From positions 19,283 to 83,282 of the forward strand of contig QQRW01000040.1 of the NCBI GenBank assembly GCA_003602605.1: DNA of 64,000 nucleotides. The letters run 5' to 3'. The notes under the pieces were generated by a model. The model had not been told where the DNA came from and made no database searches. It worked only from the letters and a program-made list of their open reading frames with translations. Origin of the DNA: Candidatus Poseidoniales archaeon (GTDB lineage Archaea; Thermoplasmatota; Poseidoniia; Poseidoniales; Poseidoniaceae). The position numbers and the translations under genes are program-made. Positions 10,609 to 61,758 of the stretch are shown here, one piece after another (within the stretch, counting starts at the first letter, position 1; each line of letters opens with the position of its first letter).

Positions 10609-10687
10609 TTGGTGATTGAAATTACCCCCTAAAACCACTGTTTGAGTGGTTCTCGGTGGCGGCACATTCAAGGGTGCTTGGGTGAGC

Positions 10688-41014: not shown

Positions 41015-42982
41015 TCACTCTTCTTCCGAGTCGAGAATCTCGTTGCGGATTTTGGAAATCATAATGTCGAGTTCAGGAAGGTTCAATCGGCCATCTCCGT
41101 CGAGGTCAACTGCGTTGACAAGTCGGCCCATTTCCCATGGAGGTAAATCTGCAATGTTAGCCTTGGAGAGAGCTTCTCTAAATTCGTAGCCGTCTACCTC
41201 ACCGGAACCGTCGAGGTCGATTGAACTAAAGAACTCAAAGATGGATTGCTTGGACTGCTTAAGGTATTGTGCGAGCATGACGAGTTCTTCAGGCATAGGA
41301 TACTCGGCGACTTCATCGTTGTGAAGTTGAGCTGTAACGCGAATCAACGACGAGCCCCCTTCGTCTTCTTCGACCTCGCCGATAGTGAGGTTCGTATCGA
41401 TTCCAACACCACGGCCGAGCAGTGTGCGAATGGTCGTCGAGCCCTCGACAAGTGTGTAAGACTGGATGTCGCTTTGAACAGCCAAGTCAGCGTATGCTGC
41501 GTTATTTGGACGGCCGGTGTGAATCATCGAAAGTGCGGCCAAAATGGTTCCAAGTGTAACGAAGTAGAACATTGCAGCAGATACGAGGAAGAACCCGTCG
41601 GTAGATGCAACAGCATCTTCGATGCCAGAGTTCACTACGGCGTATGCAGTAAAGTCTCCAATAAGCGCTGATACAGTTGCAGTCACACCGCCAATGATGG
41701 TGAACCAAACTGCAAGTTGTGCATTGCTTGCCTTAGCAAGTTGCTTTTGTGCAACGAGAGGATAGGAAGTGAAGATGGCTGCGAGCATCATCAAACCGCC
41801 AATGGTAGAAATGAATCCAGTATCAACTGTGTGGGCCATCGAACCGAGTTTGTCCATTCCAACGAAAGTGTCCATTCCAGTAAAGAACCCGCCAACTGCA
41901 TAGATAGGGAGAAGCATCATTGCAGCAGTTGCGGCAAATGCACCCGGACTCTTGACGATGCGTTCTGGGCTTGATGCGGCTGTCGCTACCATGTTTACTG
42001 AACCGGCAAACAGTGGAAGGAGCCCAATTGCCATGAGAATAGCTCCGATGTTTTGTAGTAATTCGCCGCCATCAGCAGCAGAAAGGAAGAACGGAGGGAT
42101 GGTGATGAAAAGGAAAATCATGTTTGTTTTCTGCATTGAAGCGGACCATACTGGTTTGCCTGCAGTGAATGGAATGATATGGTATGCTGCAGCAAAGATG
42201 AGTGCGAGAGGGACCCACCCATTCAAAACTCTCTCTGCCAACCAGACGGTTTGAGTAGAGTCGACGACATCACCAAAGAAAGCAAAGAACATACTCATGA
42301 TTTTCGAAACCAAAGCAAGAACGAGGAACCACGTGGTAGGGGACAGGTCGTCATGTTCTCGGTCTCCAAGAGTGATGAATACATTGATGAGAAGAGCAAT
42401 GTGAAGCATTGCCCCAACCAAAAGAAGGGATATGTTCTGAATTGTTTCCAGTACTTCATCCCCGTTCGAAACATCGATCAGAGAGAAAACTGCAGGGAGT
42501 AAGAGAACGACGGTTGTCGATGCAGTGAGAAGAACTGCGACCATCGAAGCACTTGCTTCACTGGCCAAACGACCGTTGGAAGAGCGAGAAACAGCGACAA
42601 GTGCAGCACCTATCAACAAATAGTTCAAGGCTGTCGAGAAGAAAATTGCTGTATAATCGGTCAACATTGAACCGTCATCATAACTCCAACCAACGCTGGA
42701 TAATGAATTAAGAGCGGTTGGATCGTATCGGTGCCAAATTCCCAAGAACATGCTAAGAGCAGCCATGAAGAACCAAGCCACACCGAAGCGAATCCAGGTC
42801 TTTGTACCGCTGCCTGCTTTATCGTTAAACAAGTCAATAAGACCTGCTGGTGCTTTATTGAGCAAAAACAAACCAACTTGTCGTAGTGGTTTTGCCATTC
42901 CTCCTATTCCCTTAACCATGTAATTGGCAACAAGGATGAGTGTTGCCAAAAGAAGACCGGCTGTAATGAATACTGTTTCCAT
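41015..42982 (-). CDS. Polytopic (about 12-14 TM) membrane protein with a C-terminal pair of canonical EF-hands
   Basis: Hydrophobic helices throughout aa 1-500. EF loops DLDGSGEVDGYE and DLDGDGRLNLPE (nt about 41060-41220). Confidence 0.65.
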   Translation of the reverse strand: METVFITAGLLLATLILVANYMVKGIGGMAKPLRQVGLFLLNKAPAGLIDLFNDKAGSGTKTWIRFGVAWFFMAALSMFLGIWHRYDPTALNSLSSVGWSYDDGSMLTDYTAIFFSTALNYLLIGAALVAVSRSSNGRLASEASASMVAVLLTASTTVVLLLPAVFSLIDVSNGDEVLETIQNISLLLVGAMLHIALLINVFITLGDREHDDLSPTTWFLVLALVSKIMSMFFAFFGDVVDSTQTVWLAERVLNGWVPLALIFAAAYHIIPFTAGKPVWSASMQKTNMIFLFITIPPFFLSAADGGELLQNIGAILMAIGLLPLFAGSVNMVATAASSPERIVKSPGAFAATAAMMLLPIYAVGGFFTGMDTFVGMDKLGSMAHTVDTGFISTIGGLMMLAAIFTSYPLVAQKQLAKASNAQLAVWFTIIGGVTATVSALIGDFTAYAVVNSGIEDAVASTDGFFLVSAAMFYFVTLGTILAALSMIHTGRPNNAAYADLAVQSDIQSYTLVEGSTTIRTLLGRGVGIDTNLTIGEVEEDEGGSSLIRVTAQLHNDEVAEYPMPEELVMLAQYLKQSKQSIFEFFSSIDLDGSGEVDGYEFREALSKANIADLPPWEMGRLVNAVDLDGDGRLNLPELDIMISKIRNEILDSEEE

Positions 42983-47341: not shown

Positions 47342-47998
47342 ATGGACATCTTCTTGGAATGGGTCGGCTCGACCGCTTCTATGAGCCGGAGAGAAGCGAC
47401 CGAAGTGTTCAGCGAATGGGCCGAGAAAGGCAAGGATGAGGGCATGGAAAAAGGACATGCTGCATCGGTTCACGCCATGCTCCAACTTGGCGGAATACCG
47501 CGTCAAGACAACTATTCGGCCGTCGATATAGGATGCGGAAACGGGTGGGTCTGCAGACTTCTTGCCCAAGATGAATCTTGCACCAGAGTGCTTGGCGTTG
47601 ATGGTTCAGAAGCGATGATTTCCAAAGCGAAACAGATTGATTCCAACGGCGATTATAGAGTTACAAAGCTGCCCGAGTGGGCACCAACTGAAAAATTTGA
47701 TTTTGTCCACAGTATGGAATTCTTGTACTACCTCCATGACCCACAATCTATGCTCAAACAACTGCATGAAAACTGGCTAAACAGTGGAGGAATGCTGGTT
47801 GCGGGCATAGACCACTACCGTGAAAACGATGACAGTCTCGATTGGCCGGACGCTTTGAATGTTCATATGACAACACTCAGCATTGATGAATGGAGGACAG
47901 CAATGATTGAAGCTGGCTTTATCGATGTAGAAATACACCAAGTTGCTGCAAGTGATTCATTCGTCGGAACACTTGTCATGTGCGGCAAAAAAATCTAG
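47342..47998 (+). CDS. Class I SAM-dependent methyltransferase
   Basis: Motif I VDIGCGNGW, post-I LGVDGSEAMI. The stop overlaps the convergent AddA-like stop by 4 nt. Confidence 0.7.
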   Translation: MDIFLEWVGSTASMSRREATEVFSEWAEKGKDEGMEKGHAASVHAMLQLGGIPRQDNYSAVDIGCGNGWVCRLLAQDESCTRVLGVDGSEAMISKAKQIDSNGDYRVTKLPEWAPTEKFDFVHSMEFLYYLHDPQSMLKQLHENWLNSGGMLVAGIDHYRENDDSLDWPDALNVHMTTLSIDEWRTAMIEAGFIDVEIHQVAASDSFVGTLVMCGKKI

Positions 47999-50900
47999 TC
48001 TTCATCAGGCGAAACTGGTCCAAGCGCTGAGCCTTCTGGCCCACACAATCGTATTTGTCCTCGAGCAAACGGGCATTGTGCGCACACATGGGATTTCTCT
48101 TCTGGCAAGCGGGAGGGTTCATTCAATGCTCCAGGGGTAGCAGAGAGTTGTGCCATCCATTCAAGATGGTCTGCTAGGGTCGAGGTTGCAGATTCGTATT
48201 CAGTTTGCGTCAACTGAACCATTCGTCCCGACGCGCCGATAAGCAGGGCAGGAGGTAGGATTCTGCGGCGCTCACCGACCGGCTTCTGTTGTTCAAGAAC
48301 TTCCAATGCAAGGGAATAGAGCGTCAACTGCAGACGGTGTTCATCCAGTATCGAGCGTTCCTCCAAGGTCGAAGGGTAAGGCACCAAGGCATCACCTTTG
48401 TATCTTTGAAGTCTACTTCCTTGATTCGGGTTTTCGGCATTAAATTCATCCCTGCACCCCTTGGTTTTCAAGTCAACAATCTGGAGGTATCCGTTGCCTT
48501 CTGTATCTCGCAATGCAAGCACCAAATCTGCTCGTCCGTCAAAGATTACATCAACATGGTCTATTCGAGCAATGTTTTGTTCACCTTCGACTGAAAAATG
48601 AGTCCGCATGAGGTCATCGAATCCAACTTTGTGCCGGAAGAAGAATGGGAGTTCAGTCCGCAATCCTTCAACACTGAAACCAAAGTGTTGCTCACCTGCA
48701 GCATATCTTCCAAGCAATCCCCCTCGTACAAGTTTACCGAGTTCAGCCAACCGTTTCGATGTCGTCTCAAATACATTTGAACTGGAGGAAGTTATGCCCT
48801 CTTCAGCCAAAACGCGCTCGATTGTTGCCCTATCATCAAGTAAATCCTCTCCATCAAAAACCCATGCAGGTGGAAGAGGAACAGACGATGGGGCATTCTT
48901 GACGCATGGATTTTCCAAACCAATCTCGACCAATCGGTGCATCAGCGTACCGAAAACAGTCGCTGGAGGATAAATGGAGGCTGTAGCATCAGAGGAAGGG
49001 TGGTTCAAAAAGAAATTCAATGGCTCCGGATTCCAACCCTTTACCTCAGAGAGCCAATGACGGCGAGGGCAGGCATAGCTTGTATCCAATGCATGGGCGG
49101 TCATCCGCATCATTTCACTCACCAATGGAAGGGGTTGTTCTGGTGCCACTACGGGTTGGAGGTCGTTGAGGTGAGCCTCTAAGTTCATCCATCGCTCGAG
49201 AGGGGTGGCTGTCGTAAGATCTGGGAAACAGTCCGGTGAGTGATAAATGTACAACGATTGAACAGAATGAGGGCCCAAGCAAGCATCGTCAATCAGGGAC
49301 CGTGGATCGATCGAAAGAGTTGTTTCCTTGTATTGTGAAAGTTGTTCGCCGAAGGTATCGTTTGCTTGAAGCCATGGCGAATGTGTCACACTGTGTTGGT
49401 GAGATAAACTTCGCAACCCATCAAGCCACATGGCACCCATAGTCTTCATCGAAGGTTTACTCTTGAATTCAATACAGTGGTTTTCTTCATCAAGCGTGGC
49501 TGAATCACTCGGAGAACCGACAACAATCAGTCTGTCCTTTACCCGCGTCAACGCCACATAGAATTCTCGCCTACGTTCTGCTTGACGCTGAGCATGGTCC
49601 ATTCGCTTAGCAAACTCCCAAAGTCCATCATCCGGTCGATCGCGTGAGGACCAAGGGTTGATTCGGCCTGCAACCACTTGAGGTGTGACCAAGACATTGT
49701 TTCGGACCGCTAAAGACGCATCTGATTTCCCAGCGTGAAACATGCCTGCAACGACAACAACGGGTGCTTGGAGGCCCTTAGCACCGTGAATCGTCATCAC
49801 TTGCACGGCTCCGCCTGATGGAGTAATAATGGCTGATGGACCTTTTCCACCAAGCGATTGAAGAGATTTCATTCGATTGAAAATAGCGGAAGCCTCGTGA
49901 CCCAGTTCGTTCCCAATTGAGACTGCAAGAGCACACCATGCCTCAGCATTCTGACGTGAAGTATCGTCTGAATATGCCAAAAGGAGGTCCGAATGGTCGA
50001 GCACCGCGTCAAACACATCGTGTACAGCACCCTGTTGTACGAGAGATTCCATGTGGCTTACGAGGCGTTGAACTGCCTCGTTTGGAGCATGTTCGTGTAT
50101 TTTCTGCCACCAACTTTTATTTTCATTTGACGACATCAGAGCATGAGCTTGTACATCGTTAAAACCGAAGACTGGAGAGCGAGCAAGAGACAACGCAGCA
50201 TGGCGGGAGTGAGGGAAGGCAATCAATTCTAAGCAGGCGAGAAGAGGGGATACGACCGGTCTTTGGAGAAGTGCACCTTGTCGGTCAGCCATAACTGGAA
50301 TGCCGCGAGATTGAAGCCGTTGTATAAGGTCAGGAATATACTTTCGAGAGTGAACGAGTACGATGATATCGTCAGGACGAACAGGAATTTGATTCGATGC
50401 TACTTGATGGTAGCCGTTCACCGAAGCATCCCAAACTTGGGTTGGGCTTTGAGTAACGAGCGCCTGCAATCGAGCGGCAATGAGTTCATTCTCAAGATGG
50501 GCCCTCTTTGCTTCGGGGTCTGCAAACGTATCAATCCTCTGTTCAAGGTCAAGACTTGGCGCCTCAACCCCAATCTGCAGTGGCAACAGCCACTCGAGAA
50601 CACCTTCACTATCTGTATCTCGAGCAGGATGGAGCGATTGTGCTTCAGCGTGCCAGTCCCCCGGAAGAACATAATGCCGTTCATCGAATACATCGTCGAA
50701 CATGCCGTTCATTGTACGCATCAAATTGTGTAAAGTTCGATGGTTTGAAGTTAAATCAATATGGCCGAGTAGTCGACGTTCTCGACGCTCATCTGAAACC
50801 AATCTTGAGTGCCCTCCTCCGTCTTCAAAACCGACCTCAATATGTTCCCATAACTGAGATTTGACAACCGACCCCTCAATTTGAGAGCCTTGAATGAAAG

Positions 50901-52947
50901 AATTCCCTGCACCAACTGGGCGTGGATCTCTGCCACAACCTTCAGCGTGCAAATGCTGCAACCTTGGCTCAGATTGTTCAATAGAATTCGCGGTTTGAAT
51001 TGCCGCCACAGTTCGACGCATCACTGTGACCTCTGCTTGACGGAATCTGTAGATACTTTGTTTCATGTCTCCGACTATGCATACGGTCGGATCCCATGGC
51101 CCTAACGGGTTCTGTGGCTCATCCGCCTCGAGTCTACGACGACCCCAAAGACGAGCGAGCAGTCGGAAGTGTGCAGGGTTGGTGTCTTGGTATTCATCGA
51201 TGATGAAGGCTCGATATTGGCGGCGTATTGTTTGCAGAGTGTAGAAACGGCGTTGGAGGTCTTCATAACATGCCTGATCGTCTCCAGCCAGACGCATGGC
51301 ACGTGAGATGTGTTGGTCCGACCAAGGCTCATCGCCGAGTCTGTCGAGGGTTTGAACCACCTCAGGGGGATACAAGTGGCGAACCATGTCTGGGCATCGA
51401 GCAAGCAACAAGTCAGCGACAAGGCGCTGTATATCGTCGTAATCATGCACCCCTTCATGCGCTTTGCGCAGCGAGAGGATATCTTGGCAGCCTCGGTGAA
51501 CAACAAGTAAATCATTGAGGACATTGGTTTGAAGTTCGTGTGAAATTCGAAGCCGTCCCTCTGGTGCAAGATCGCTGAACGAAAGATTTACTTCTTGACA
51601 GCGAATCTTAGAGCCTTCAGGTAAAAAGGGCAATTCTGAAGAGGGATTGAGTAAGAAAGCACTACGGCCGAGGAGGCAAACTAACCTGCCGAGTCGTCCC
51701 GTCAAGAGCCCTTTCAACTCATTTCCAGCTTCAAGTGCATTTTCGACAACCGCTTCCTTTTGCGATTTGGAAACTCCTTTAGCAGCAGATTTCGATAAAA
51801 GACCGGGGTGCCATCCTTCTGAATGATTCACCTGAGGTAGGCCTCCTTTCGGGAAAAAATTCGGCTCATCATCTGATAATTGACTTGTCGTTGCCCCAGC
51901 GATAGCCACCTGCCAAACCCATTGCAGACATTCACCTGGATCTTCAGGAAGGGTTTGGCGAGCCAATGCAGTCAGGTGGTTAAATCGAGTAAGGGTCGTC
52001 CCGATGTCCGTCTCACAAGCGTGAACATAACTTGCAGCATGAGCCATGTAAACATCGACCCATTCAGAGAGTTTATTTTGTAATCTTTGAGCAAATTCTA
52101 CAACAGTGTGCCGAACGGGCTCGAGAAACATATCCATCAGAACTTCGTGAGGCATTGGACCGACACCGCTCCAATCTGAACCGAGTGTTTGGGCTCGAGA
52201 GAGCATGGCTTGATACGCTTCTTCAACAAACAGGGATTTACCGAGCATCCCACTCAATACGACGGCTGAACGTTCTTGACCCCCGAGGAGAACAGCTAAT
52301 CGGTTTCTCGACTCGAGGAACGCTCCGATGTTGCCACGTACCCCTGCCTCGTGTGCGTCATCAATGGTTCGAATTCGCCAAGCGGAATGAAGTGCTTCTT
52401 GGATAAGAAGTGGCGCACGTTCTTCTGAAATCTGTTCTCGGCTTGGATGAACTGCAACCAAGTCAAGGTGCGGTGATACAAGTTGTGAGAGGAAAGCATC
52501 GATGGTCGAAATTGGTGCTTCATCGAGTGCTGACATTAATGTCTCGATGTCGCCCTCGGTGATTCGTGGGTCGAAAATACCCTCATCGTCTCCTTTTTCA
52601 AGCGGTGAAGCACGGCTTTGACCCACCCTGTGACGGATTTTTGCCATCAACTCAGCAGCGGCTTTCTTAGTGAAAGTGATAGCTGCCACTTCGCTTGGCA
52701 GAAGACCTTTCCATTCTTTCGGTGGAGTTCGTTGTCGAGGTGGTGCTCGCAGAAAACCACTTGCTTGATTCGATTCTCGTGGGCCAGGGGGAAGCAAGTG
52801 GGTCGCACGTTGTTCCGATGAGAGAAGATGCTGAACATAACGCTCTGCCATAACCGTCGTTTTTCCAGTACCTGCGCCAGCATCCAGCGCAATATGCTTG
52901 TCAAGGTCAAGACCAAGGCGCTGACTCCGATTAAATCGTATCTTCAA
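47995..52947 (-). CDS. addA: AddA/RecB-like SF1 helicase-nuclease (1650 aa) with a Cys-bracketed C-terminal RecB-type nuclease
   Basis: AGAGTGKT, ITFTKKAAAEL, STIDAF, IIDEYQDTN, VGDMKQSIYRFRQA, TSNHRT, MTIHGAKGLQAP, EFYVALTRVKDRL. Nuclease GRADLV / IVDLKTK / LQLTLYSLAL. Cys set ACPRRHW ... CAQCPFARGQIRLC. TTG start overlapping the upstream stop (TTGA). Confidence 0.85.
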   Translation of the reverse strand: MKIRFNRSQRLGLDLDKHIALDAGAGTGKTTVMAERYVQHLLSSEQRATHLLPPGPRESNQASGFLRAPPRQRTPPKEWKGLLPSEVAAITFTKKAAAELMAKIRHRVGQSRASPLEKGDDEGIFDPRITEGDIETLMSALDEAPISTIDAFLSQLVSPHLDLVAVHPSREQISEERAPLLIQEALHSAWRIRTIDDAHEAGVRGNIGAFLESRNRLAVLLGGQERSAVVLSGMLGKSLFVEEAYQAMLSRAQTLGSDWSGVGPMPHEVLMDMFLEPVRHTVVEFAQRLQNKLSEWVDVYMAHAASYVHACETDIGTTLTRFNHLTALARQTLPEDPGECLQWVWQVAIAGATTSQLSDDEPNFFPKGGLPQVNHSEGWHPGLLSKSAAKGVSKSQKEAVVENALEAGNELKGLLTGRLGRLVCLLGRSAFLLNPSSELPFLPEGSKIRCQEVNLSFSDLAPEGRLRISHELQTNVLNDLLVVHRGCQDILSLRKAHEGVHDYDDIQRLVADLLLARCPDMVRHLYPPEVVQTLDRLGDEPWSDQHISRAMRLAGDDQACYEDLQRRFYTLQTIRRQYRAFIIDEYQDTNPAHFRLLARLWGRRRLEADEPQNPLGPWDPTVCIVGDMKQSIYRFRQAEVTVMRRTVAAIQTANSIEQSEPRLQHLHAEGCGRDPRPVGAGNSFIQGSQIEGSVVKSQLWEHIEVGFEDGGGHSRLVSDERRERRLLGHIDLTSNHRTLHNLMRTMNGMFDDVFDERHYVLPGDWHAEAQSLHPARDTDSEGVLEWLLPLQIGVEAPSLDLEQRIDTFADPEAKRAHLENELIAARLQALVTQSPTQVWDASVNGYHQVASNQIPVRPDDIIVLVHSRKYIPDLIQRLQSRGIPVMADRQGALLQRPVVSPLLACLELIAFPHSRHAALSLARSPVFGFNDVQAHALMSSNENKSWWQKIHEHAPNEAVQRLVSHMESLVQQGAVHDVFDAVLDHSDLLLAYSDDTSRQNAEAWCALAVSIGNELGHEASAIFNRMKSLQSLGGKGPSAIITPSGGAVQVMTIHGAKGLQAPVVVVAGMFHAGKSDASLAVRNNVLVTPQVVAGRINPWSSRDRPDDGLWEFAKRMDHAQRQAERRREFYVALTRVKDRLIVVGSPSDSATLDEENHCIEFKSKPSMKTMGAMWLDGLRSLSHQHSVTHSPWLQANDTFGEQLSQYKETTLSIDPRSLIDDACLGPHSVQSLYIYHSPDCFPDLTTATPLERWMNLEAHLNDLQPVVAPEQPLPLVSEMMRMTAHALDTSYACPRRHWLSEVKGWNPEPLNFFLNHPSSDATASIYPPATVFGTLMHRLVEIGLENPCVKNAPSSVPLPPAWVFDGEDLLDDRATIERVLAEEGITSSSSNVFETTSKRLAELGKLVRGGLLGRYAAGEQHFGFSVEGLRTELPFFFRHKVGFDDLMRTHFSVEGEQNIARIDHVDVIFDGRADLVLALRDTEGNGYLQIVDLKTKGCRDEFNAENPNQGSRLQRYKGDALVPYPSTLEERSILDEHRLQLTLYSLALEVLEQQKPVGERRRILPPALLIGASGRMVQLTQTEYESATSTLADHLEWMAQLSATPGALNEPSRLPEEKSHVCAQCPFARGQIRLCGPEGSALGPVSPDED

Positions 52948-55900
52948 TTCACTTCACCTCCGAGCGTTGCTGAAGGGCAGATTTGTCGCACCATACAATA
53001 TGAACAATGCTTACCTGGTGTTGGATTAACGGTTCCGTTTGAAGCAGCCTTGATTGCACGGTTCGCTGTTCGAATCCGTTCCTGAACCCACGACCTGAAA
53101 CCATTGGTCGCAGTGTATTCTGTACCTGGTTCTCGGTGATGATTTTGTGTGTACATGGTTCGTTCACCAATCTCATCAGCGCCAAGGTACTTCAAAATCG
53201 TCGAGTCAAGCTCGACATAGTGGGTTGTCGATTCACCAATCTCAGAAACACCAACCCCTACAACTCTGTCACCTGGATGGCTTTGTTCCCAAGCACGAGC
53301 GTATAATCCAAGTTGAACTTCGTCAAACAGCGACTTTCTGTGCCTGTCGCCCTTGTCGGTGGCCTTTGGTCCGTTCACCGTCTTCAAATCACGAATGATG
53401 ACAAGACGATTTGCAGGACCGGGCTGTTCTAACGAAACGATTTCATCCACTTCCGAAGAAGACAACACCCCGTCTTTGATGGCTTGAGCTTTCATCTCCG
53501 GGGTCAGCAAAAGGGCGTCTACGCGGTCGACTCTTCCCGACAAATTGAATGACGATTCTTCGCCAGCATCGTCTTTTCCATCAACCTCAACATGTCGGTT
53601 TTTTCCGGATTTAAACTCCCACTCGCACGCAAGAGGAGCAACCCCTGTAAGAGCGAAATCTGATTCAATCATTCGCCCAATCCGTCCACTGGGCTCGAGT
53701 TCGTTTTCTCCCTCAAGGTACAACCTCCATTCAGCGGGTGTAACGCCAATCATCTCCCTGCAACGGTGAACGGCAACAGCATCGTATCGGGTCAACCACG
53801 GGACTTCGTCGGAAAGGTAGGTGAGAACAGCCCCCCACAACGCGTCAACTGAATCTTTAGGACCAAGATGGAGAGGAAGTGGAGAAGGGACTGCATCCTC
53901 GGCTGTTGGAACTCCGTGACTTCGCAGTAAAGCCGCCTCGGCATCGTGAATAAGTGTCCCACGTGTACGCGATTCGAGGTCTTCACTCAGCGTCTCCTCT
54001 GCCCTTGCTTTCAATTGCGTATCCATCCACGCTTTGCGTGGGCATTGTAGCCAAGATTGTATACGACTCTGAGACCACTTTTCCCGTTCAACCGAGGATG
54101 AATGCGAGCCTAGAGTCGAATTGAGAATTTCGCTCGGAAATGTATAGGCTGGTAATGGTCTCGGGTCAATCGCCGGACCTCTAGACCTGCTGTTCCTTTT
54201 CATACCAAGATGCGGCCAATGTTCTTGCTTACTTGAGCCAACTCCTACTTGAGATTTTGTTGGTTGAAGAATAATACCGTCGACGCTCAAGAGGTGTTGT
54301 CGGTTTTCCCAAGTAAAATATTCATTGTTACCAAGGTTCTTCATGGCTGGTTGGCGAAGGTGACGATCGTTTTGAAGTGACAATTCGTTAGCAATAGCAA
54401 GACTGGTGTGAGAAAGAACTGCTGCTTCTGGAGTCCCTCCTTCTGCTAATTCAAGACCGGCGCGTTGCCGTGAATCACGTCCTCGATATCCGCCTCGTTC
54501 TCCAACAGCTCGGCCATTGACCATCGACATGGTAAACGGTCTTGGGGTCAACCAGACTGTTTTACTTCCATGCTCTCCTGATGTCCAGTGCCAGCTTCGG
54601 TGAGGAGTCCCTTCTTGATGTGCCTCCAGAGGTAAAAACGAAGGCGCGCTGGAATACATAGGGAGCGTACCAGCAGTTCTGTTTTCTGCCAACCATTCAG
54701 CCAGCGGAGCACTGGGGCCGCCACCCTCTTCTGCACTTGTATCGAATACAATGATTTCTGTGCCGGCGTTGAGTAAATGACGAAGATGATGCCGCCCCTG
54801 ACGGATGGTGATGTCGGATGAAAATAGACCGAGACGTAATTGTGCAGGCGCATCAAGCCAGGGGACTTTCGATGACTTCATGGGCCATGCATTCACATCC
54901 AAACCTACGAGAAGAATCAAGTCAGCCTCGACACCAAGTGCCTTTTGAGGAGTTAAGACTTGTACATTCTTCCCACTGGAGCGAGAACGTGGTAGAGAAG
55001 TTCTCGAAAGAATTTGTTCAAAGTGTTGGATGAATTGTTCTCCACTCTGAGGAGCACTGAGATTTGCATTGCTCAACTGTTGGTTTGTCTTTTCATATAC
55101 CTCACGAACCATTTGAAGCCCGGCAAGTGAGCGGTCAAAAGCAGTTGTTCTGCTGGATAAAGTGGTCCAATCAAGACGTAAATACATTGCATCCAACCAT
55201 TCAGCACCCGTCTTCAATCGTTGGGGAAGAGGAAGTTTTTGTTGAGACGAGCACCCAATCGCCTCTCCTTCAATCGAACGTCTCGATTCATCATCAATCA
55301 ACGGAGCCCACATTTCTGCAACGCAATGTATCCACCACTGAGTCTCTTCAAGCGCTTGACGCTGACGTGTTGGATTCTCACCAAGTTGCGGAGTGGCTTG
55401 CGACAAGATAGAGAGCCAACGCGAAAGACTACCAAGGCCGCCTCGGACATGAAAAGAACGCGCTATATTCTCCAATACCTCGGGATGAGGGCGTGGCACC
55501 CAAGTTCTCTCACTGGGATGTACTAGGTGCTCGATGCCCCCGTTCACTAAAGGAAGACTGTTGTGCTCGTACAAAACACGGAGGTGCTGAAGAGACCATG
55601 CTTCCATCCCTACGCCAAGTTTCATCGCACGCAGCAAACCACTTACCGCAGGTATCTGTTCAAGTTGAACCATATCTGAGCCGCAGTTGAATCCTAATGT
55701 TTCGATTCGAGAATGCCACTGAGGCATATTCGTATCAGCAGCTCCATCAATGATCAAAACGCTACCAGAAGATTGAATCGAAAATGAGCGAAGGAGTTCT
55801 ATTGCAGCATCCATTCCGTGTTTACATCGTTCAAGGGTCACGAGATGCATACTGGTTTGGCGGTCATCACCGCGTCGAGAACGCCATGGTACATTGACCG

Positions 55901-56717
55901 GTGGCTTCCACACTTCATGATCTGGAATCCATTTTGGCAAAGTGGCTTGGTTCGTATACTCCCATTCTGCTTCGAACAGATACGCCCCATGGTGGCCAAG
56001 TCGAAACGAACCCGCACAACACAACTGATGTATCGGTCGATGGGTCGACAATTGTTGATAGAAGGAACGCTCGATCTCCGAGAAATCGGGTGCGGTGTTG
56101 AGCAAGATTATTCCATCAACATCATTCAATGTAAATGGTGGGTTATCCGAAACCTGCAGGGCTTTGATAATTTCATGAAGAGCACGATGTGGATGAGTCC
56201 CCTGTAGACTTGATTCTACTTGAGTGAGTATTTTATCAAAATCACGTGCGCCGGGGTCCTCGGCCCAACCCCAAGGGTGGTTCAGTTGAGTGAGGGTGCG
56301 GTGAAGGCTGAGTAAGCGTTCGGTCTGGAAAGCAGACCATTTTCTTCCTTCAACAGCGGAAAAAAGCAAAGGTAAATCTCCACGCTCTGCAGCTTGTTTG
56401 GTAAAAGCATGAATGACTGCAAATGTCCCGGCATCATCACCCAATATTGGAGGAAGGCCAAGGTCAAGAATCAGCAATTGTGTAAGCCGAATAAGAGTGA
56501 GATGGTGAGTTGTATCGACTGGTGTATCGGTCTGAGATAAACGAAGAAGGGTCTGACTACGGCTGGCTTCATTGGGGTGGATGAACAATACATTGCCCGC
56601 CGAACCACTCTGTAGCGCATCACTTAACCATGTAGGCATGTTATCTCCTGAATCAATTGCCTCAAGGGTGATTGATACATTCGATTCGTGTTTCATTCTC
56701 GCCCGCCCTATCACCAT
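52944..56717 (-). CDS. addB: AddB-like nuclease subunit (1257 aa) with iron-staple-type Cys set; no Walker A seen
   Basis: C-terminal RecB-type nuclease GTLIHDAE / GRVDRVD / IIRDLKT / VQLGLYARA, bracketed by WLQCPRKAW and CSYCMVRQIC (CX2CX5C). Position and order (B then A) match the bacterial addBA operon. Confidence 0.75.
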   Translation of the reverse strand: MVIGRARMKHESNVSITLEAIDSGDNMPTWLSDALQSGSAGNVLFIHPNEASRSQTLLRLSQTDTPVDTTHHLTLIRLTQLLILDLGLPPILGDDAGTFAVIHAFTKQAAERGDLPLLFSAVEGRKWSAFQTERLLSLHRTLTQLNHPWGWAEDPGARDFDKILTQVESSLQGTHPHRALHEIIKALQVSDNPPFTLNDVDGIILLNTAPDFSEIERSFYQQLSTHRPIHQLCCAGSFRLGHHGAYLFEAEWEYTNQATLPKWIPDHEVWKPPVNVPWRSRRGDDRQTSMHLVTLERCKHGMDAAIELLRSFSIQSSGSVLIIDGAADTNMPQWHSRIETLGFNCGSDMVQLEQIPAVSGLLRAMKLGVGMEAWSLQHLRVLYEHNSLPLVNGGIEHLVHPSERTWVPRPHPEVLENIARSFHVRGGLGSLSRWLSILSQATPQLGENPTRQRQALEETQWWIHCVAEMWAPLIDDESRRSIEGEAIGCSSQQKLPLPQRLKTGAEWLDAMYLRLDWTTLSSRTTAFDRSLAGLQMVREVYEKTNQQLSNANLSAPQSGEQFIQHFEQILSRTSLPRSRSSGKNVQVLTPQKALGVEADLILLVGLDVNAWPMKSSKVPWLDAPAQLRLGLFSSDITIRQGRHHLRHLLNAGTEIIVFDTSAEEGGGPSAPLAEWLAENRTAGTLPMYSSAPSFLPLEAHQEGTPHRSWHWTSGEHGSKTVWLTPRPFTMSMVNGRAVGERGGYRGRDSRQRAGLELAEGGTPEAAVLSHTSLAIANELSLQNDRHLRQPAMKNLGNNEYFTWENRQHLLSVDGIILQPTKSQVGVGSSKQEHWPHLGMKRNSRSRGPAIDPRPLPAYTFPSEILNSTLGSHSSSVEREKWSQSRIQSWLQCPRKAWMDTQLKARAEETLSEDLESRTRGTLIHDAEAALLRSHGVPTAEDAVPSPLPLHLGPKDSVDALWGAVLTYLSDEVPWLTRYDAVAVHRCREMIGVTPAEWRLYLEGENELEPSGRIGRMIESDFALTGVAPLACEWEFKSGKNRHVEVDGKDDAGEESSFNLSGRVDRVDALLLTPEMKAQAIKDGVLSSSEVDEIVSLEQPGPANRLVIIRDLKTVNGPKATDKGDRHRKSLFDEVQLGLYARAWEQSHPGDRVVGVGVSEIGESTTHYVELDSTILKYLGADEIGERTMYTQNHHREPGTEYTATNGFRSWVQERIRTANRAIKAASNGTVNPTPGKHCSYCMVRQICPSATLGGEVN

Positions 56718-57052
56718 TACAGATGTCGACTGTTCTTGAAGGCTCGCTGTCAGACTTGCTCAGATCATCTTTCGTTGATAAACTGTCGAATGCAAAAGTT
56801 GCTCCGGCGTCAGTATCGGTTTTCTTTTTTTATATAGTGTCGAAAAGAATAGTCTTCGTTTGTGGAAACATGAACGGGTCTTGTTTTGCAAAATCCATTC
56901 ATGATGACCGGCAGATTAAAATAGTAGGAGCGTTCTATTGTACCTGTTGGGCCGTAAAATATCGTTTAGTTACCTTTTTCGGATTTTTCTAAAAGAAGGC
57001 AACGAGTGATTGAGCAGCCCACAAACGGCAAACAAGAAAGGAGATAATAAGT
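56718..57052. promoter_or_regulatory. 335-bp AT-rich divergent intergenic region (addB-like <-> TFB-like) with several TATA-like elements and a Shine-Dalgarno sequence
   Basis: TTTTTTTATATA at about 56825-56836, GATTAAAATAG near 56913, GTAAAATATCG near 56954, TTCTAAAAG near 56988. AGGAG at 57039-57043, 9 nt before the ATG at 57053. TGTCGAA occurs twice (about 56784 and 56838). Confidence 0.4.
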
Positions 57053-58252
57053 ATGACTGAAGACATGAACCAAAAGAAGATTGAATTGACAAACTGTGAT
57101 GAATGCGCAAGCAAGAACCTTACACCCATGCCCGAGAAGGGTGAAACTTGGTGCGATGACTGTGGTCTTGTCCACAAGGATCAGAACATTTTGGCAAACG
57201 ACAACGGTGGCGCACTGTTTGGCGAAGGGGCACACTACCAAGCTGTCCGTCAGGATGCCGACCAGAATCAGAATCTCGGTGGCACCGGTCCAAAGATGCG
57301 CTTTGGTTCCAAAGGAGTGCACAATCCGAACAAGTACCGTTTGCTCGAGAAGATTGACCGTAGCAGTGTTCGTATCCCACACCCTTTCGCTAATCGCGTT
57401 AAGCGTAACATCGAGCAGTTGTATGGCCGTCACGCACTTCACATCCTCGAGTACATCGTAGAGATGTCCTGCAAACCACTCACTGGGACGCAAGAGCAGA
57501 TACGCAAGAAGCAGTCCAAGTCACTAAAGAAGAGACTGGGCATGCCAAAGCAATCAATTTGCCGTAAAGATAAGGGAATCAAAGGTTCCTCTGAGGAACA
57601 GAATGCAGTCATCATGGCTGCTGCTATTGTCGAGCTTGCTGGCGAGTTGGGCATCATGCCAAAATTTGACCGCCGTTCAACCATGGCCAAGGCCAATATT
57701 TCACCGAAGCAGATTAGTAGCGCTCGAATCCGTATTCTCCAACACTGGAAAGCACGCCTCACCATGAAGTGGGCTGAAATGCCACCGCGGAAGAACGCTA
57801 ACGACCGTCGCGAAGATTCCATTGCGCAAGCCATGGAACACGTATTCGAAATGCTCGGCGAGCACCTTTCCATTGATGAATTTGAGCGAGTCCTGTATGA
57901 GACCGAGACTCGCTTGGCCCTCCTCAATGAAGGTACAAGTGGCGCACTTACCATCAACATCGAACCCCGAATGGTCGTTTGCGTTACCGCTTACGCCAGT
58001 TTGAATTTCTTCGGACTGCAGTCTGGTGCTGCTGACTTGCTCGCAGATGTTTTCGGACTCACAAGCAGCGGTATTCGTTCCCGATATGACGCATTGGTAA
58101 AGCAGTCCGAGTCAGGAACCTTTCATGATGCCGGGGCTTTTGATGTCTCTAAACCATGCTACGACGCTGCATCAGACAAGCACGCACAGAATGCATTGAT
58201 ATCCAAGGTCCGATTGGGTAATGTATGCGGAAAGCGCTCTTCATTGCCCTGA
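57053..58252 (+). CDS. Divergent TFIIB/TFB-like transcription factor paralogue
   Basis: N-terminal TFIIB-type Zn ribbon CDEC-x18-CDDCGLV. Two cyclin-repeat-like segments each ending in an HTH-like stretch (AAAIVELAGELGI...ISPKQISSARIRIL and VCVTAYASLNFFGLQSGAADLLADVFGLTSSGIRSRYDAL). Confidence 0.6.
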   Translation: MTEDMNQKKIELTNCDECASKNLTPMPEKGETWCDDCGLVHKDQNILANDNGGALFGEGAHYQAVRQDADQNQNLGGTGPKMRFGSKGVHNPNKYRLLEKIDRSSVRIPHPFANRVKRNIEQLYGRHALHILEYIVEMSCKPLTGTQEQIRKKQSKSLKKRLGMPKQSICRKDKGIKGSSEEQNAVIMAAAIVELAGELGIMPKFDRRSTMAKANISPKQISSARIRILQHWKARLTMKWAEMPPRKNANDRREDSIAQAMEHVFEMLGEHLSIDEFERVLYETETRLALLNEGTSGALTINIEPRMVVCVTAYASLNFFGLQSGAADLLADVFGLTSSGIRSRYDALVKQSESGTFHDAGAFDVSKPCYDAASDKHAQNALISKVRLGNVCGKRSSLP

Positions 58253-59346
58253 TTGTTTTCTTCATGGCTTTTCTTCCTCAACCAACTACTGCCGCCCCTG
58301 CTGAACAAACCGAGGCTGGAATGTTGTTTGGAGGGCAATGGGCTCTAGCTGACGAGCCGGGTATCTCTTCAACCAACCTAGAGGAGCTACCGCCAGTGGT
58401 GGAAGTTTATACTGCCACTTGGTGTGGGAATTGTGTCGATGTCGAGCATGCCTTAGACGACATAGAAAACGACACGGGACTTCAACAATATCACATTCAC
58501 AGAGCAATCAATGAAATCCAGGACCCTCTGGGAAGTATCGAGATCGATCAACGCTTCATCGATCGCTATGGAACCATGGCTCCGCCTGCGGTCGTGTTTA
58601 ACGGAACGACCATCAAGGCAGGTAGCGTCCCGAATGATGCTGCATCTTTAGAAGACGAGTTCACGTTACTTTCTGACATTCATCTCACGCTTGTCGGCAA
58701 CTCGAGTTTTGCTTGGGTACCAAACGCAGAAGATGGTGGAATTGTTGCATGGTCCCTCAATATCGAAAACATGGCAGTTCCCAAAGGCAGTTCTATCGTT
58801 GCTCAGGCATGGGTTGTTGAGGAATCAGCACGGTTTGAAGACGGTTCAAACGGTCTCGAAAATTACCCTCATGTCGTACGAGGAATCATTGAACTGGGAA
58901 AGATGAACTCCAACGGTGAATCGGTCACAATGACAGGTAACAGCACGATATCTCTCCCTTCTGCATACGATGGTTCAGATTTATCAGTGCACCTCTTGTA
59001 TCAGCTCAATTATGCTACCGTCACAGAAGAAACTGAACAGCAATCGTGGCCGCTCGTCGAAGTTGTTGTGTTCCTTATTGTAGGAGTCGTGGGTGTTGTT
59101 TTCTTCTTGCGCAGCCGGAAACGGGACCAGACTGGAAAATCCGTCACTGAATTCCAAACGAATCCTGTTCATCCAGTGGCGACAGCGGTCCAGCAAGAAT
59201 ACCAACAGCCAGTTGCTCAACAACCTGTGACCGTTGCACAACCTGTCGTACTTCAACAATGGACCGACGATACAGGCTACACCTGGCGACGGATGGATGA
59301 CAATTCCTACTTCTGGTGGACTGGAAGCGAATGGAAGCGCAGATAA
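58225..59346 (+). CDS. Exported thioredoxin-fold protein with C-terminal TM anchor and Gln/Trp-rich cytoplasmic tail
   Basis: Signal peptide ALFIALIVFFMAFLPQPTTAAPA, VEVYTATWCGNCVDVEHAL (CxxC at nt 58423-58434), TM VVVFLIVGVVGVVFFL, tail QQWTDDTGYTWRRMDDNSYFWWTGSEWKRR. Overlaps the TFB-like gene by 28 nt. Confidence 0.6.
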   Translation: MRKALFIALIVFFMAFLPQPTTAAPAEQTEAGMLFGGQWALADEPGISSTNLEELPPVVEVYTATWCGNCVDVEHALDDIENDTGLQQYHIHRAINEIQDPLGSIEIDQRFIDRYGTMAPPAVVFNGTTIKAGSVPNDAASLEDEFTLLSDIHLTLVGNSSFAWVPNAEDGGIVAWSLNIENMAVPKGSSIVAQAWVVEESARFEDGSNGLENYPHVVRGIIELGKMNSNGESVTMTGNSTISLPSAYDGSDLSVHLLYQLNYATVTEETEQQSWPLVEVVVFLIVGVVGVVFFLRSRKRDQTGKSVTEFQTNPVHPVATAVQQEYQQPVAQQPVTVAQPVVLQQWTDDTGYTWRRMDDNSYFWWTGSEWKRR

Positions 59347-59397: not shown

Positions 59398-61758
59398 TTA
59401 ATTTGGGCGCTGAAGTCTGCGGTTGGAATCTCGAAGGTCTTGTTGCAGCCCCCAACGGAATTCAGTAATATGGTGGGGTGTTTGCACCACTTCACCAAAG
59501 TGCCAATGCCACGGTGATGAGTTTGGATTGCCAAGTGTCGATTGTGCCCTATCGAGGTGAAGTGCGAGGTCTCTACGCGCAGTCTGCTTGGCATGATCTC
59601 TTCGTATGAACACGATGCTCTGGTCATGAGTGCCTTGTTCAACAAAACCGAGGAGGGTCGCAAACCTCCTCAATATTCGACGTTCCTGCTGATTTCGTAC
59701 AGTCATTGCGAGGTGGCAGTGCTCAAAGGTAACATCTCCCCCATCCAACACTCCAAGCCTAAAGGTAGAGCCAATAGGGTGCTGCAACAAAGCGTCCCAA
59801 ATCCGAGGGAAGATTTCGCAGTAGCGCCGCTCACCGTTTCGTATGTCGCCAACAGGTAAATCCTCTACCAAAGTGATATGATGCTGCCTTTGCAGATGGA
59901 GTTGCGCCCAATTGTTCCTATCATGTCCGAAATGGTGAAGGTAATGATGGGGTTCAAAAATTTCCTCTGCAGAACCGTCCTTCAGAGACTCATGCCAGAG
60001 TTCAATGAACTGTGGGTGTGGCATTGCGGAATCAGCAGCCACTGCATGTTCAACCAAAACATCACAACGGTTTTTTCGGTTCGGAGCATTTCCATCCTGA
60101 TGCCATCTACGTCGTCGATTGAAGGCGACATTTCTATGGAATAAATGCATCATGTTTTGGTTTCGCCCACCTGCTTCAGTAGGCTGGTCTCGTGGCAACC
60201 ATCGAATGGAATCAGAGTGATTTTCCGTGATTTGCTTGAATTCTTGTACGGCAGAATCACGAAGGAAACGAATGTGTTTATCGTTCAAAGGAGATAAAAA
60301 TCCAAGCGGAGGCCTCAAAGCAATGTGTTCTCGTAAACTACCAATCTTACCTGAGGTTTTAACATCATCAACAAGCGAAAGGATGACGGATACGATTGTA
60401 TCGCCAAGTGGGACTGTCGAATGAAAGGTGCCGTGATGAATGCAAAGTGCTGTCGTACTCCTTGGCCCTAACGAATCAATTGCGCGTATGATAAACGGTG
60501 CTCCGTGCGCTCCTCTGCCAACTTTAACTTCGTAAAAATGGCCCAATCGACCGATGACCAGCATGCGCTCTTCATGGACAAAAACCCGATCGGAGTTACT
60601 GTCAATAACTTCTCGAAGAAATTGAATAGACCGACGTAGGGGCGCTGATATCTGGTGGGTTTCCTGCTTTGAATCGGTCCAATTGAACTGTAGAGCATAC
60701 AACAAGTCAGAGCCTGACGAGCGATGGGGCGAAAAGGCAAGCGATATCAAAAATGCCCAGACACCCGGTTCTTCTGGAATTGAAGTCTTACGTGATGCGT
60801 TGTTCTTTGCTCGAACCACGAACTTGAGTTTCCCTCCAACGATTTCGAACGGCCACGTGCGATTAGTGTTGAATCGTTGATATCGAGTGTATGCCAGCCA
60901 CCTTCGAGTCCAAGGGTAAATTGTAAGTTCCTCCAATCCAGTCGGATGATGGGTGAAGGCTTCTTTCAAATGGTTCTCAAATTTCGTTCCAATGGGCGTT
61001 GATAATCTCTGCCGAACATCGCGAGACCAAGCACCTAGCGGATTCATTGCAGAATGTTTAGGCGCCTCAAGTTGCTCTTCAGCCATCCATTCAACCCATG
61101 AAAGCATCGCTGAAGCAGTGGGTTTATCCAGAGAATCACGAATTCTGTTTGGCCCGATGAGGCGGCGGGGCACTCGACGAATTGGCAGTGTATCGATAGC
61201 TCCGGTCGTCATTGTTCCAATCGCAATCAACAGCTTCGACAAATCCCAGCCTAAACGATGTTTCTTCGAAGAGAGAAGATTGAGAATGGATACCATCGGC
61301 ACCGACGCAATCGTTGGTCTTCCATTGAGATACATACGGTCGGCAACAAACGAAACATGCGTACCATCGAAGAGATGAAAGCCTCTGTGCAATTGTACCC
61401 GTTGCTTTCTATTCAACCGAACACCATCGGATATTCTTTCGATGATACCGGCCATATCGTCTCCATCGCACGGAGAAACTAACACTGGATCAAGTGATTG
61501 ATCGGGTAGCTGAGCCCAACCTACATCTTCCGAGTCGGATACATTTTGCATCAAACACTTCCATCGTTGTTTTGCAGTTCGGCTCCCGCCGCCAATCAAT
61601 TGCAGCGCTTCAAAGTGAGTATCGTCGGGTATCTCACATGTCCATCTATTGTTGGTTTTAGAAACGATAATCGACTCACATAAAGGACACGGACTCAAAG
61701 TTGAAGGATGTTCACATACAGAGCAAAATGAGGTATGCTGTCGCCGAGCCATAGTCAT
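59398..61758 (-). CDS. Orphan 786-aa basic, His/Arg/Trp-rich protein with an N-terminal CxxC...CxxC zinc ribbon
   Basis: CSVCEHPSTLSPCPLCES at aa 12-27. No catalytic motif recognised. Long clean ORF in the only plausible frame. Confidence 0.5.
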   Translation of the reverse strand: MTMARRQHTSFCSVCEHPSTLSPCPLCESIIVSKTNNRWTCEIPDDTHFEALQLIGGGSRTAKQRWKCLMQNVSDSEDVGWAQLPDQSLDPVLVSPCDGDDMAGIIERISDGVRLNRKQRVQLHRGFHLFDGTHVSFVADRMYLNGRPTIASVPMVSILNLLSSKKHRLGWDLSKLLIAIGTMTTGAIDTLPIRRVPRRLIGPNRIRDSLDKPTASAMLSWVEWMAEEQLEAPKHSAMNPLGAWSRDVRQRLSTPIGTKFENHLKEAFTHHPTGLEELTIYPWTRRWLAYTRYQRFNTNRTWPFEIVGGKLKFVVRAKNNASRKTSIPEEPGVWAFLISLAFSPHRSSGSDLLYALQFNWTDSKQETHQISAPLRRSIQFLREVIDSNSDRVFVHEERMLVIGRLGHFYEVKVGRGAHGAPFIIRAIDSLGPRSTTALCIHHGTFHSTVPLGDTIVSVILSLVDDVKTSGKIGSLREHIALRPPLGFLSPLNDKHIRFLRDSAVQEFKQITENHSDSIRWLPRDQPTEAGGRNQNMMHLFHRNVAFNRRRRWHQDGNAPNRKNRCDVLVEHAVAADSAMPHPQFIELWHESLKDGSAEEIFEPHHYLHHFGHDRNNWAQLHLQRQHHITLVEDLPVGDIRNGERRYCEIFPRIWDALLQHPIGSTFRLGVLDGGDVTFEHCHLAMTVRNQQERRILRRFATLLGFVEQGTHDQSIVFIRRDHAKQTARRDLALHLDRAQSTLGNPNSSPWHWHFGEVVQTPHHITEFRWGLQQDLRDSNRRLQRPN

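Follow-up and report, generated by a model that had tools for sequence, protein, structure and literature searches.

A divergent AddAB-type gene pair with four-cysteine sets in both predicted nucleases of Poseidoniales archaea

We analysed a 64,000-nt stretch of DNA (the window) from a Candidatus Poseidoniales archaeon (assembly GCA_003602605.1, contig QQRW01000040.1, positions 19,283 to 83,282), and in particular two overlapping minus-strand genes that resemble bacterial addB and addA. The upstream gene (52944..56717; 1257 aa; ATG start) encodes an AddB-like subunit, in which a degenerate scaffold resembling superfamily 1 (SF1) helicases is followed by a PD-(D/E)xK nuclease with a four-cysteine (Cys4) set. 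The downstream gene (47995..52947; 1650 aa; TTG start) encodes an AddA-like subunit with an SF1A UvrD-type motor, enlarged accessory regions and a C-terminal Cys4 RecB-type nuclease. It is likely that the two genes encode a heterodimeric AddAB-type helicase-nuclease, vertically inherited in Poseidoniales, whose most probable task would be the processing of double-stranded DNA ends.

The AddAB architecture was assigned because one subunit is a live motor-nuclease and the other joins a dead helicase to an iron-staple nuclease. The pair has this domain architecture, intact motor and nuclease motifs, an AddB-like fold, an overlapping gene order and conservation across the order. The initial annotation of this DNA had proposed that the genes form a helicase-nuclease operon of the addB-addA type, that the chromosome is truly archaeal and that each subunit has a Cys4 set; all the tests run supported this.

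The gene pair and its two subunits

The two minus-strand open reading frames (ORFs) had been described as coupled through a TTGA overlap, and the ORF list and the junction sequence confirmed their coordinates, starts and overlap exactly. The junction (52944..52961, minus strand) reads ...GAA GTG AAT TGA. Here the AddB-like gene ends with TGA (52946-52944), and the start codon of the AddA-like gene, TTG (52947-52945), runs into this stop; the result is the 4-nt TTGA overlap. A Shine-Dalgarno-like motif, GGAGGTGA, lies upstream of the TTG at 52961-52954. The B-then-A junctions were overlapping or abutting in the related loci L001, L003 and L005 too, and the two genes were adjacent in all 73 loci that hold both. 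This is the adjacent, co-oriented addB-addA arrangement of AddAB systems.

The helicase core of the AddA-like subunit, from motif I to motif VI, spans 49528..52878 on the minus strand. It contains GAGTGKT (aa 24-30), DEYQD (584-588), GDMKQSIYRFRQA (626-638), NHRT (735-738), TIHGAKGL (1052-1059) and VALTRVKDRL (1131-1140). Motifs I, Ia, II, III, IV, V and VI were all located, and were invariant or nearly so in 38 orthologues. In the nuclease, which carries the strings GRADLV, VDLKTK and LQLTLYSLAL, residues D1474, D1492, K1494, Q1540 and Y1544 were invariant in the same orthologues. The subunit therefore has the features of AddA, namely complete SF1A motifs I-VI and a C-terminal RecB-family PD-(D/E)xK nuclease with its catalytic residues.

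The domain searches proposed in the initial annotation found all three profiles concerned in the AddA-like subunit: UvrD-helicase (2.7e-30), UvrD_C (2.6e-15) and PDDEXK_1 (1.1e-10; aa 1282-1628), besides UvrD_C_2. Among the NCBIfam models, addA_Gpos ranked first (164.7 bits), followed by addA_alphas (124.3) and recB (120.9). The equivalog cut-offs of the two AddA models (TIGR02785, 707.65 bits; TIGR02784, 860.75 bits) were not reached. The closest relative in the Protein Data Bank (PDB) was Bacillus subtilis AddA (3u44_A; 1.6e-18 in the single-sequence search, 2.3e-33 in the profile search); AdnB came second, then UvrD1 and RecB.

More than 120 full-length relatives of the AddA-like subunit, of about 1610-1666 aa and 47-93% identity, were found, and those with a name belong to Candidatus Poseidoniales or Poseidoniaceae archaea. 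An exhaustive search with residues 560-1650 delineated a sharply bounded family of 1500-1716 aa, with scores down to 324 bits. Beyond this family no protein scored above 116 bits; those that followed were of about 1060-1360 aa and matched the helicase 2A/2B part only. These outgroups are bacterial and haloarchaeal (Haloferax, Natrarchaeobaculum, Halogeometricum) and scored alike, at about 100-116 bits. AddA models were the top match for all of the nearest ones.

Both proteins had been described as far longer than their Bacillus counterparts. Against the target lengths of the B. subtilis PDB chains (AddA, 1232 aa; AddB, about 1150 aa), this was right for the AddA-like subunit, which is about 420 aa longer, but not for the AddB-like subunit, which is only about 100 aa longer. 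The distance of about 550 aa given for Walker A to DEYQD is 554 aa in the translation. In B. subtilis AddA it is about 370 aa by alignment coordinates.

The AddB-like subunit gave less to sequence searches. Its only Pfam match was PDDEXK_1 (68 bits, 1.3e-18), and it is currently annotated as a 'hypothetical protein' only. The NCBIfam model addB_alphas was among the few that touched it, at 35.9 bits against a cut-off of 486.5 (TIGR02786). Searches against PDB chains with the single sequence and with a profile returned no AddB, only a weak Cas4 match at the CPR motif. Its homologues formed 53 clusters, all of about 1190-1300 aa, and a profile search of a 5.8-billion-protein database returned nothing outside these clusters. 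Beyond the nuclease domain, profile searches detected no sequence relatives of the family outside the Poseidoniales lineage.

The scaffold (residues 1-881; 54075..56717, minus strand) was assigned from its predicted fold because the sequence and profile searches found no AddB. An AlphaFold2 (AF2) model of these residues had a mean confidence (pLDDT) of 79 and a predicted template modelling (TM) score (pTM) of 0.72. With Foldseek, the top five PDB matches of the model were AddB chains (E 1.3e-13 to 7e-13; TMq 0.48-0.50), and UvrD, AdnA and RecC ranked below them. The inactivated SF1 helicase-like N-terminal scaffold of AddB is thus recognised here at the level of fold only. This match gives the 'hypothetical protein' a testable assignment. 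By analogy, residues 1-881 are a candidate 3'-strand channel and hotspot-recognition module.

A Walker A motif ([AG]x4GK[ST]) was absent from the first 400 aa of the AddB-like subunit in all 73 orthologues; anywhere in the protein, the pattern was matched in 4 of 42 sequences. The nuclease domain (52947..54074, minus strand; PDDEXK_1) carries CPRKAW, GRVDRVD, IIRDLKT, VQLGLYARA and CSYCMVRQIC. All of the motif strings quoted for both proteins in the initial annotation were found in the translations. Residues D1064/D1067, D1110, K1112, Q1135 and Y1139 were invariant in the 42 sequences. The domain is a PD-(D/E)xK nuclease bracketed by C…CxxCx5C, as in the iron-staple nuclease of AddB. Alignment of the two families with hhalign gave nothing significant, and paralogy of the subunits or copying of a nuclease domain between them was not supported.

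Cysteine sets in both nucleases

The cysteines of the AddB-like subunit are C892 (54042-54044), C1238 (53004-53006), C1241 (52995-52997) and C1247 (52977-52979). Those of the AddA-like subunit, in its nuclease domain at 47998..49104 on the minus strand, are C1293 in ACPRRHW (49069-49071), C1622 (48082-48084), C1625 (48073-48075) and C1635 (48043-48045). The last three lie in CAQCPFARGQIRLC (48043-48084), and the coordinates match those first reported. The spacing is C-x345-CxxCx5C in the AddB-like and C-x328-CxxCx9C in the AddA-like subunit. The latter has the arrangement of an iron staple, with a conserved N-terminal Cys and a C-terminal CxxCxnC, and differs in the spacing of x9 instead of x5.

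In the AddB-like subunit C892 was conserved in 42 of 42 sequences and C1238, C1241 and C1247 in 38. In the 38-sequence alignment of the AddA-like subunit, the counts were 35 (C1293), 36 (C1622), 31 (C1625) and 26 (C1635). The set was complete in 56 of 62 complete AddA-like proteins, and its full pattern, CPRxxW…CxxCPx8C, persisted at 33-39% identity. Among the 62 complete species-level pairs, 53-54 had full sets in both subunits, two (L021, L022) had a full set in the AddA-like subunit only, and six were incomplete in both. A comparable Cys tail was found in 3 of the 52 nearest full-length outgroups. The second bracketing set claimed in the initial annotation is present and conserved across orthologues; lack of conservation, which would have spoken against it, was excluded by these counts and by the 15 of 20 family representatives (50% clusters) that keep the CxxCP…C tail.

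The losses were confined to particular clades and left the nuclease residues in place. In L019-L025 the AddB-like tail reads Y…[S/G/N]…Y. Some of these species (L021, L022) keep an intact AddA-like set, and in others it is degenerate. The L037-L040 loci have an AddB-like tail shifted to CxxCxxC, with the last Cys lost, and a truncated AddA-like subunit. In L003 and L004 the AddA-like subunit ends in 'SCWNSEIQ', and the AddB-like set is intact. Since Cys were lost in several clades, the clusters would be dispensable in some lineages. A link of the losses to iron availability is speculation.

The AF2 model of the AddA-like nuclease domain (pLDDT 89, pTM 0.82) matched AdnA (top), RecB, Dna2 (with the highest TM, 0.39-0.40), AddA, AddB and the Cas4-family ACE1. 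These matches fit an iron-staple fold without deciding the matter. From the two Cys patterns we infer that both nuclease domains would bind a 4Fe-4S cluster that staples the nuclease fold.

It is unlikely, in our judgement, that the AddA-like cysteines are instead a structural zinc site or a decaying remnant without iron-sulphur (Fe-S), leaving a complex with the canonical AddB-type cluster only. RecB and AddA, to our knowledge not described as Fe-S carriers, are also among the fold matches of this domain, which would suit such a site. The last spacing of x9 would suit it too, against x5 in the AddB-like subunit here, in Bacteroides fragilis AddB (PMC2887965) and in Haloferax AddB, as would the loss of one to three AddA-like Cys in several clades that retain the nuclease residues. 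On the other hand, the first Cys lies in CPRxxW, a motif common to the AddB-like subunit and Cas4, and 15 of 20 family representatives retain the CxxCP…C tail, some as distant as 33% identity. Fe-S nucleases (AdnA, Dna2, AddB, ACE1) dominate the top structural matches. L021 and L022 keep the AddA-like set intact with the AddB-like set lost, a pattern that points to selection on the AddA-like cysteines.

Among characterised enzymes, a cluster is described in AddB alone for AddAB (PMC3321194), and in AdnA alone, the non-lead subunit, for AdnAB (PMC8789073). For this reason a Cys4 set in the motor-bearing lead subunit makes this AddAB-type pair a real departure.

The locus in Poseidoniales and its probable role

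A profile scan of species-level genomes found relatives of the AddB-like subunit in 333 genomes. The best 80 of these were essentially all Poseidoniales, Poseidonia or 'Euryarchaeota' metagenome-assembled genomes. The matches included a 778-kb contig and the 2.06-Mb Marine Group II (MG-II) chromosome CM001443.1. Relatives at 30-48% identity, and those on a 3.0-Mb contig of 71% GC, had the same B-then-A order and the same neighbours. The recurrent neighbours were genes for a β-eliminating lyase, PTH2, a methyltransferase, an α/β hydrolase, phosphatidylserine (PS) decarboxylase, a radical SAM protein, an EF-hand protein and an Obg-like GTPase.

Because the same neighbours recur on long contigs, we interpreted the pair as a vertically inherited core locus of Poseidoniales and not as a chimera or a recent island. 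The initial annotation had also called the flanking genes archaeal, and the window does contain RadA (Rad51 + HHH_5; 9571-10608), FtsZ (10646-11827), two tandem PTH2 genes on the minus strand (62866-63282 and 63291-63665) and a protein with a weak TFIIB Zn-ribbon match.

Several points weigh against the proposed AddAB-type enzyme with two clusters. Both proteins lie far under the curated AddA and AddB equivalog cut-offs. The AddB-like scaffold was recognised solely through its predicted structure, at a TM of about 0.5 and a root-mean-square deviation of 7-8 Å. It is also without the Walker A motif, which is described as conserved in AddB and which B. subtilis AddB uses to stabilise the Chi complex (PMC3321194). 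The last-Cys spacing in the AddA-like subunit is x9 and not the canonical x5, and Cys losses in one subunit or in both are seen in several clades. Because the scores are so far below the cut-offs (164.7 vs 707.65 and 35.9 vs 486.5 bits), the pair, judged by sequence, is a distinct and very divergent branch and not standard AddAB.

By analogy with B. subtilis AddAB (PMC3321194), the predicted heterodimer would bind a duplex end. The SF1A motor of the AddA-like subunit would pull the 3' strand with ATP, translocating 3'→5', and the unwound strands would take separate channels, where the AddA-like nuclease would cut the 3' strand and the AddB-like nuclease the 5' strand. The dead-helicase scaffold of the AddB-like subunit would form the 3'-strand channel, in which a regulatory hotspot could be read, and the cluster in the nuclease of this subunit, as in AddB, would help to bind and split the DNA end. 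The product would be a 3' single-stranded tail, handed to the archaeal recombinase RadA and not to RecA. Complex formation, activity, cluster binding, hotspot control and the hand-off to RadA are predicted by analogy; all functional statements about the pair are likewise predictions.

A wider proposal would be that in Poseidoniales this AddAB-derived machine, and not HerA-NurA, is the main long-range resection enzyme and passes its 3' tails straight to RadA, a eukaryote-like recombinase, and that the second 4Fe-4S cluster, in the motor subunit, is functional. The cluster could serve, for example, as a DNA-end pin or as an iron/redox-sensitive switch on the 3'-strand nuclease, and the repeated loss of Cys would then be an adaptation to iron scarcity. 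We put this forward tentatively and consider it rather unlikely.

The surroundings of the operon also bear on whether the pair, like UvrD-Cas4 fusions or Gabija GajB, is a module that defends against viruses or plasmids by degrading invading linear DNA, and not a housekeeping repair enzyme. RecBCD and AddAB also destroy foreign linear DNA, and we counted this in favour of a defence role. PADLOC GajB models matched the helicase (up to 67 bits), the Haloferax AddAB-like pair adjoins a ResIII helicase on a 145-kb replicon, and fusions of UvrD-type helicases to Cas4-like Fe-S nucleases occur in defence contexts in bacteria and mesophilic archaea (PMC5704561). However, the PADLOC matches are of a generic kind (UvrD/GajB and Cas4) and fall short of the 164.7-bit AddA match. 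The operon is set in stable housekeeping surroundings (PTH2, PS decarboxylase, Obg-like GTPase, a chorismate-binding enzyme), and no restriction-modification, Dcm/Vsr or other defence genes were found in its neighbourhood in the window and the related loci. Its near-universal conservation at a single locus across the order is unlike that of patchy defence islands. With only generic PADLOC similarity, defence was rejected as the principal role and appears improbable, and some activity on foreign linear DNA is possible.

An AddAB-type enzyme was also preferred to one of the AdnAB or RecBCD type, which we consider very improbable. In the sequence searches of the PDB, AdnB ranked second for the AddA-like subunit, and AdnA and RecC are among the fold matches of the AddB-like scaffold; however, AddA outranks AdnB and RecB, and AddB chains outrank AdnA and RecC. 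No RecD-like gene adjoins the pair in the window or the related loci, unlike the RecBCD arrangement. RecC is without a nuclease site, whereas that of the AddB-like subunit is intact; PMC3321194 describes RecC solely as an inactivated helicase. The AddB-like subunit also differs from AdnA, which keeps Walker A and B (PMC3321194), in having no Walker A.

An artefact (a bacterial fragment mis-assembled or mis-binned onto archaeal DNA) or a recently acquired island, which domain families typical of bacteria and one matching genome record labelled Verrucomicrobiales (L048) might suggest, was ruled out by the flat GC of the window (measured at 0.46-0.51) and by synteny, as the same archaeal neighbours occur on many independent contigs (up to 778 kb, 2.06 Mb and 3.0 Mb), 333 species genomes carry the locus, and the 'Verrucomicrobiales' contig has the full Poseidoniales synteny; the chimera that the initial annotation had considered is excluded in the same way, by order-wide synteny on long contigs.

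The record in question (NZEQ01000040.1, 'Verrucomicrobiales bacterium ARS100') carries the β-eliminating lyase gene, the 786-aa and thioredoxin-like ORFs, the TFB-like gene and the AddB-like gene. Because this synteny is complete, we judged the label to be wrong, and the record is probably mis-binned or mislabelled. The distant relative L005 (ERZ26167216 contig, 3.0 Mb), at 33-36% identity and 71% GC, has the same pair and neighbours. Its contig looks like a closed 3.0-Mb genome, larger and much richer in GC than the MG-II reference L043 (2.06 Mb, 53% GC).

End resection in archaea is normally discussed as the work of Mre11-Rad50 and HerA-NurA. MG-II or Poseidoniales are very abundant, uncultured planktonic archaea of the ocean. 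A whole archaeal order has here kept, in addition to RadA, a core gene pair for an AddAB-like enzyme of bacterial type. If active, the enzyme would be a bacterial-style resection motor serving a Rad51-type recombinase, which raises the question of how loading or hand-off proceeds without RecA. If the wider resection proposal were true, these highly abundant marine archaea would have a stable inter-domain hybrid recombination pathway. An active enzyme would also offer a natural experiment on the role of Fe-S in helicase-nucleases, with sets in both subunits, in the AddA-like only, in the AddB-like only or in neither. Such natural variants suit tests of the cluster as a structural, DNA-binding or regulatory element.

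Several aspects of the pair seem not to have been described before. These are the Poseidoniales family itself, inherited vertically across the order; its extreme divergence, which puts both subunits under the family cut-offs; an AddB-like subunit that so far has only the annotation 'hypothetical protein'; the enlarged AddA-like subunit; and the double iron-staple pattern with its lineage-specific losses.

Upstream of the operon, an intergenic region of 335 bp (56718..57052) with an A/T-rich TATATAAAAAAA stretch near 56826-56837 separates it from the divergent gene for a 399-aa transcription factor B (TFB)-like protein (57053-58252, plus strand). From its sequence, this region is presumed to be a candidate promoter region of the operon. 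The TFB-like protein had a weak TFIIB Zn-ribbon match (20 bits, below the cut-off) and no match to the TFIIB cyclin domain. Of the related loci, 54 have a full-length homologue in the corresponding place, the MG-II reference chromosome among them; the upstream genes of the most distant loci matched the thioredoxin-like ORF and not the TFB-like gene. The TFB-like gene as a dedicated regulator of the operon was considered and rejected. All the flanking genes are similarly conserved, which is general synteny and no specific linkage.

The thioredoxin-like ORF (58225-59346, plus strand; 373 aa) has a hydrophobic, signal-peptide-like N-terminus and a WCxNC motif, with homologues in 62 related loci. 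Aligned homologues (L001, L003, L005) showed a hydrophobic C-terminal tail and a PGFG/PAxG motif resembling an archaeosortase sorting signal. A 786-aa ORF (59398-61758, minus strand) without Pfam matches was found at the same position in 50 related loci. The tandem duplication of PTH2 was also present in L003 and L004; L001 and L005 have a single copy. Elsewhere in the window, a 655-aa protein (41015-42982, minus strand) has C-terminal EF-hand calcium-binding motifs and adjoins the Obg-like GTPase in L003 and L004. A 2779-aa ORF (27917-36256, plus strand) had no Pfam match at E<=0.001, and an 1133-aa ORF (14939-18340, minus strand) had no Pfam matches.

Comparison with known systems

Eukaryotic Dna2, which acts in end resection, similarly unites an SF1 helicase and an iron-staple nuclease on one chain (PMC3321194). 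It differs in the N-terminal position of the nuclease (PMC3321194). According to PMC5393063, its helicase is SF1B and of opposite polarity, and its partners are RPA and a RecQ helicase instead of an AddB-like protein.

The UvrD-Cas4-like fusions (pfam12705 branch; Hudaiberdiev et al. 2017, PMC5704561) also combine an active SF1 UvrD-type helicase with a Cas4-like Fe-S nuclease. Those proteins are of about 1000 aa and stand alone or in restriction-modification or Dcm/Vsr contexts, whereas the AddA-like subunit has 1650 aa, is always paired with the AddB-like subunit and lies in housekeeping surroundings; it is not of the fusion type. A possible member of that type among the outgroups is P0243, which has 1063 aa and the tail CSSCQYCNYRNIC.

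Mycobacterial AdnAB is a heterodimer of two UvrD-like/nuclease subunits with Fe-S in the nuclease domain of AdnA (PMC8789073), and this domain was the top fold match of the AddA-like nuclease. However, AdnA keeps its ATP-binding motifs and the AddB-like subunit does not, and Fe-S is not described in the lead motor AdnB.

Closer in host are the haloarchaeal pairs, in which a PDDEXK_1 protein with CP…CxxCx5C is followed by a UvrD/PDDEXK protein, and which are among the nearest AddA-like outgroups. In Haloferax volcanii (L006, CP104744.1, 26404-46132) these proteins have 1104 aa and 1242 aa (WP_275880863). The nuclease of the Haloferax AddB-like protein matched that of ours in hhalign with 95% probability and the same Cys pattern, over the nuclease domain only. 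The haloarchaeal proteins differ in their canonical sizes, in an AddA-like match of only about 113 bits over the helicase 2A/2B region and, in Haloferax, in an AddA-like C-terminus without a Cys tail. The context of the Haloferax pair (ResIII helicase, 145-kb replicon) also looks mobile. A ResIII/Helicase_C protein (1075 aa) precedes the AddB-like and AddA-like genes in a run of three on that replicon; the flanking genes encode TFIIB and proteins with DUF4143, VWA and metallo-β-lactamase folds or domains. The run resembles an AddAB-like module that has an additional SF2 helicase.

The initial annotation had presented the pair as unusual in archaea. This stands for MG-II, of which no description was found: a literature search tying Marine Group II or Poseidoniales to AddAB, RecB, UvrD, Mre11 or Rad50 returned nothing relevant. 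It does not stand as a general statement. Cromie 2009 is cited in PMC2887965 for a transfer of AddAB 'even into the archaea', and this and the Haloferax pair are precedent in principle. AddAB-like pairs in archaea are not new in principle.

In B. fragilis AddAB, the shorter AddB retains the four Cys at 16% identity to B. subtilis AddB (PMC2887965). The AddB-like subunit here also has four Cys, and addB_alphas touches it. The differences are the low score of that model (only 35.9 vs 486.5 bits), the bacterial host, and the second Cys set in AddA, which is not reported there.

Against B. subtilis AddAB (PDB 3U44/3U4Q/4CEH-4CEJ), the AddA-like subunit is larger. About 70 additional residues lie between its motifs III and IV, and its nuclease domain, which has a Cys4 set of its own, is larger too. 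The AddB-like subunit is without Walker A, and the host recombinase is RadA and not RecA. The pair shares with B. subtilis AddAB the addB-then-addA order, one active SF1A motor subunit that ends in a RecB-type nuclease, and a second subunit in which an inactivated helicase scaffold precedes an iron-staple nuclease (C…CxxCx5C) at the C-terminus. By sequence the AddA-like subunit is closest to B. subtilis AddA, and by fold the AddB-like subunit is closest to AddB.

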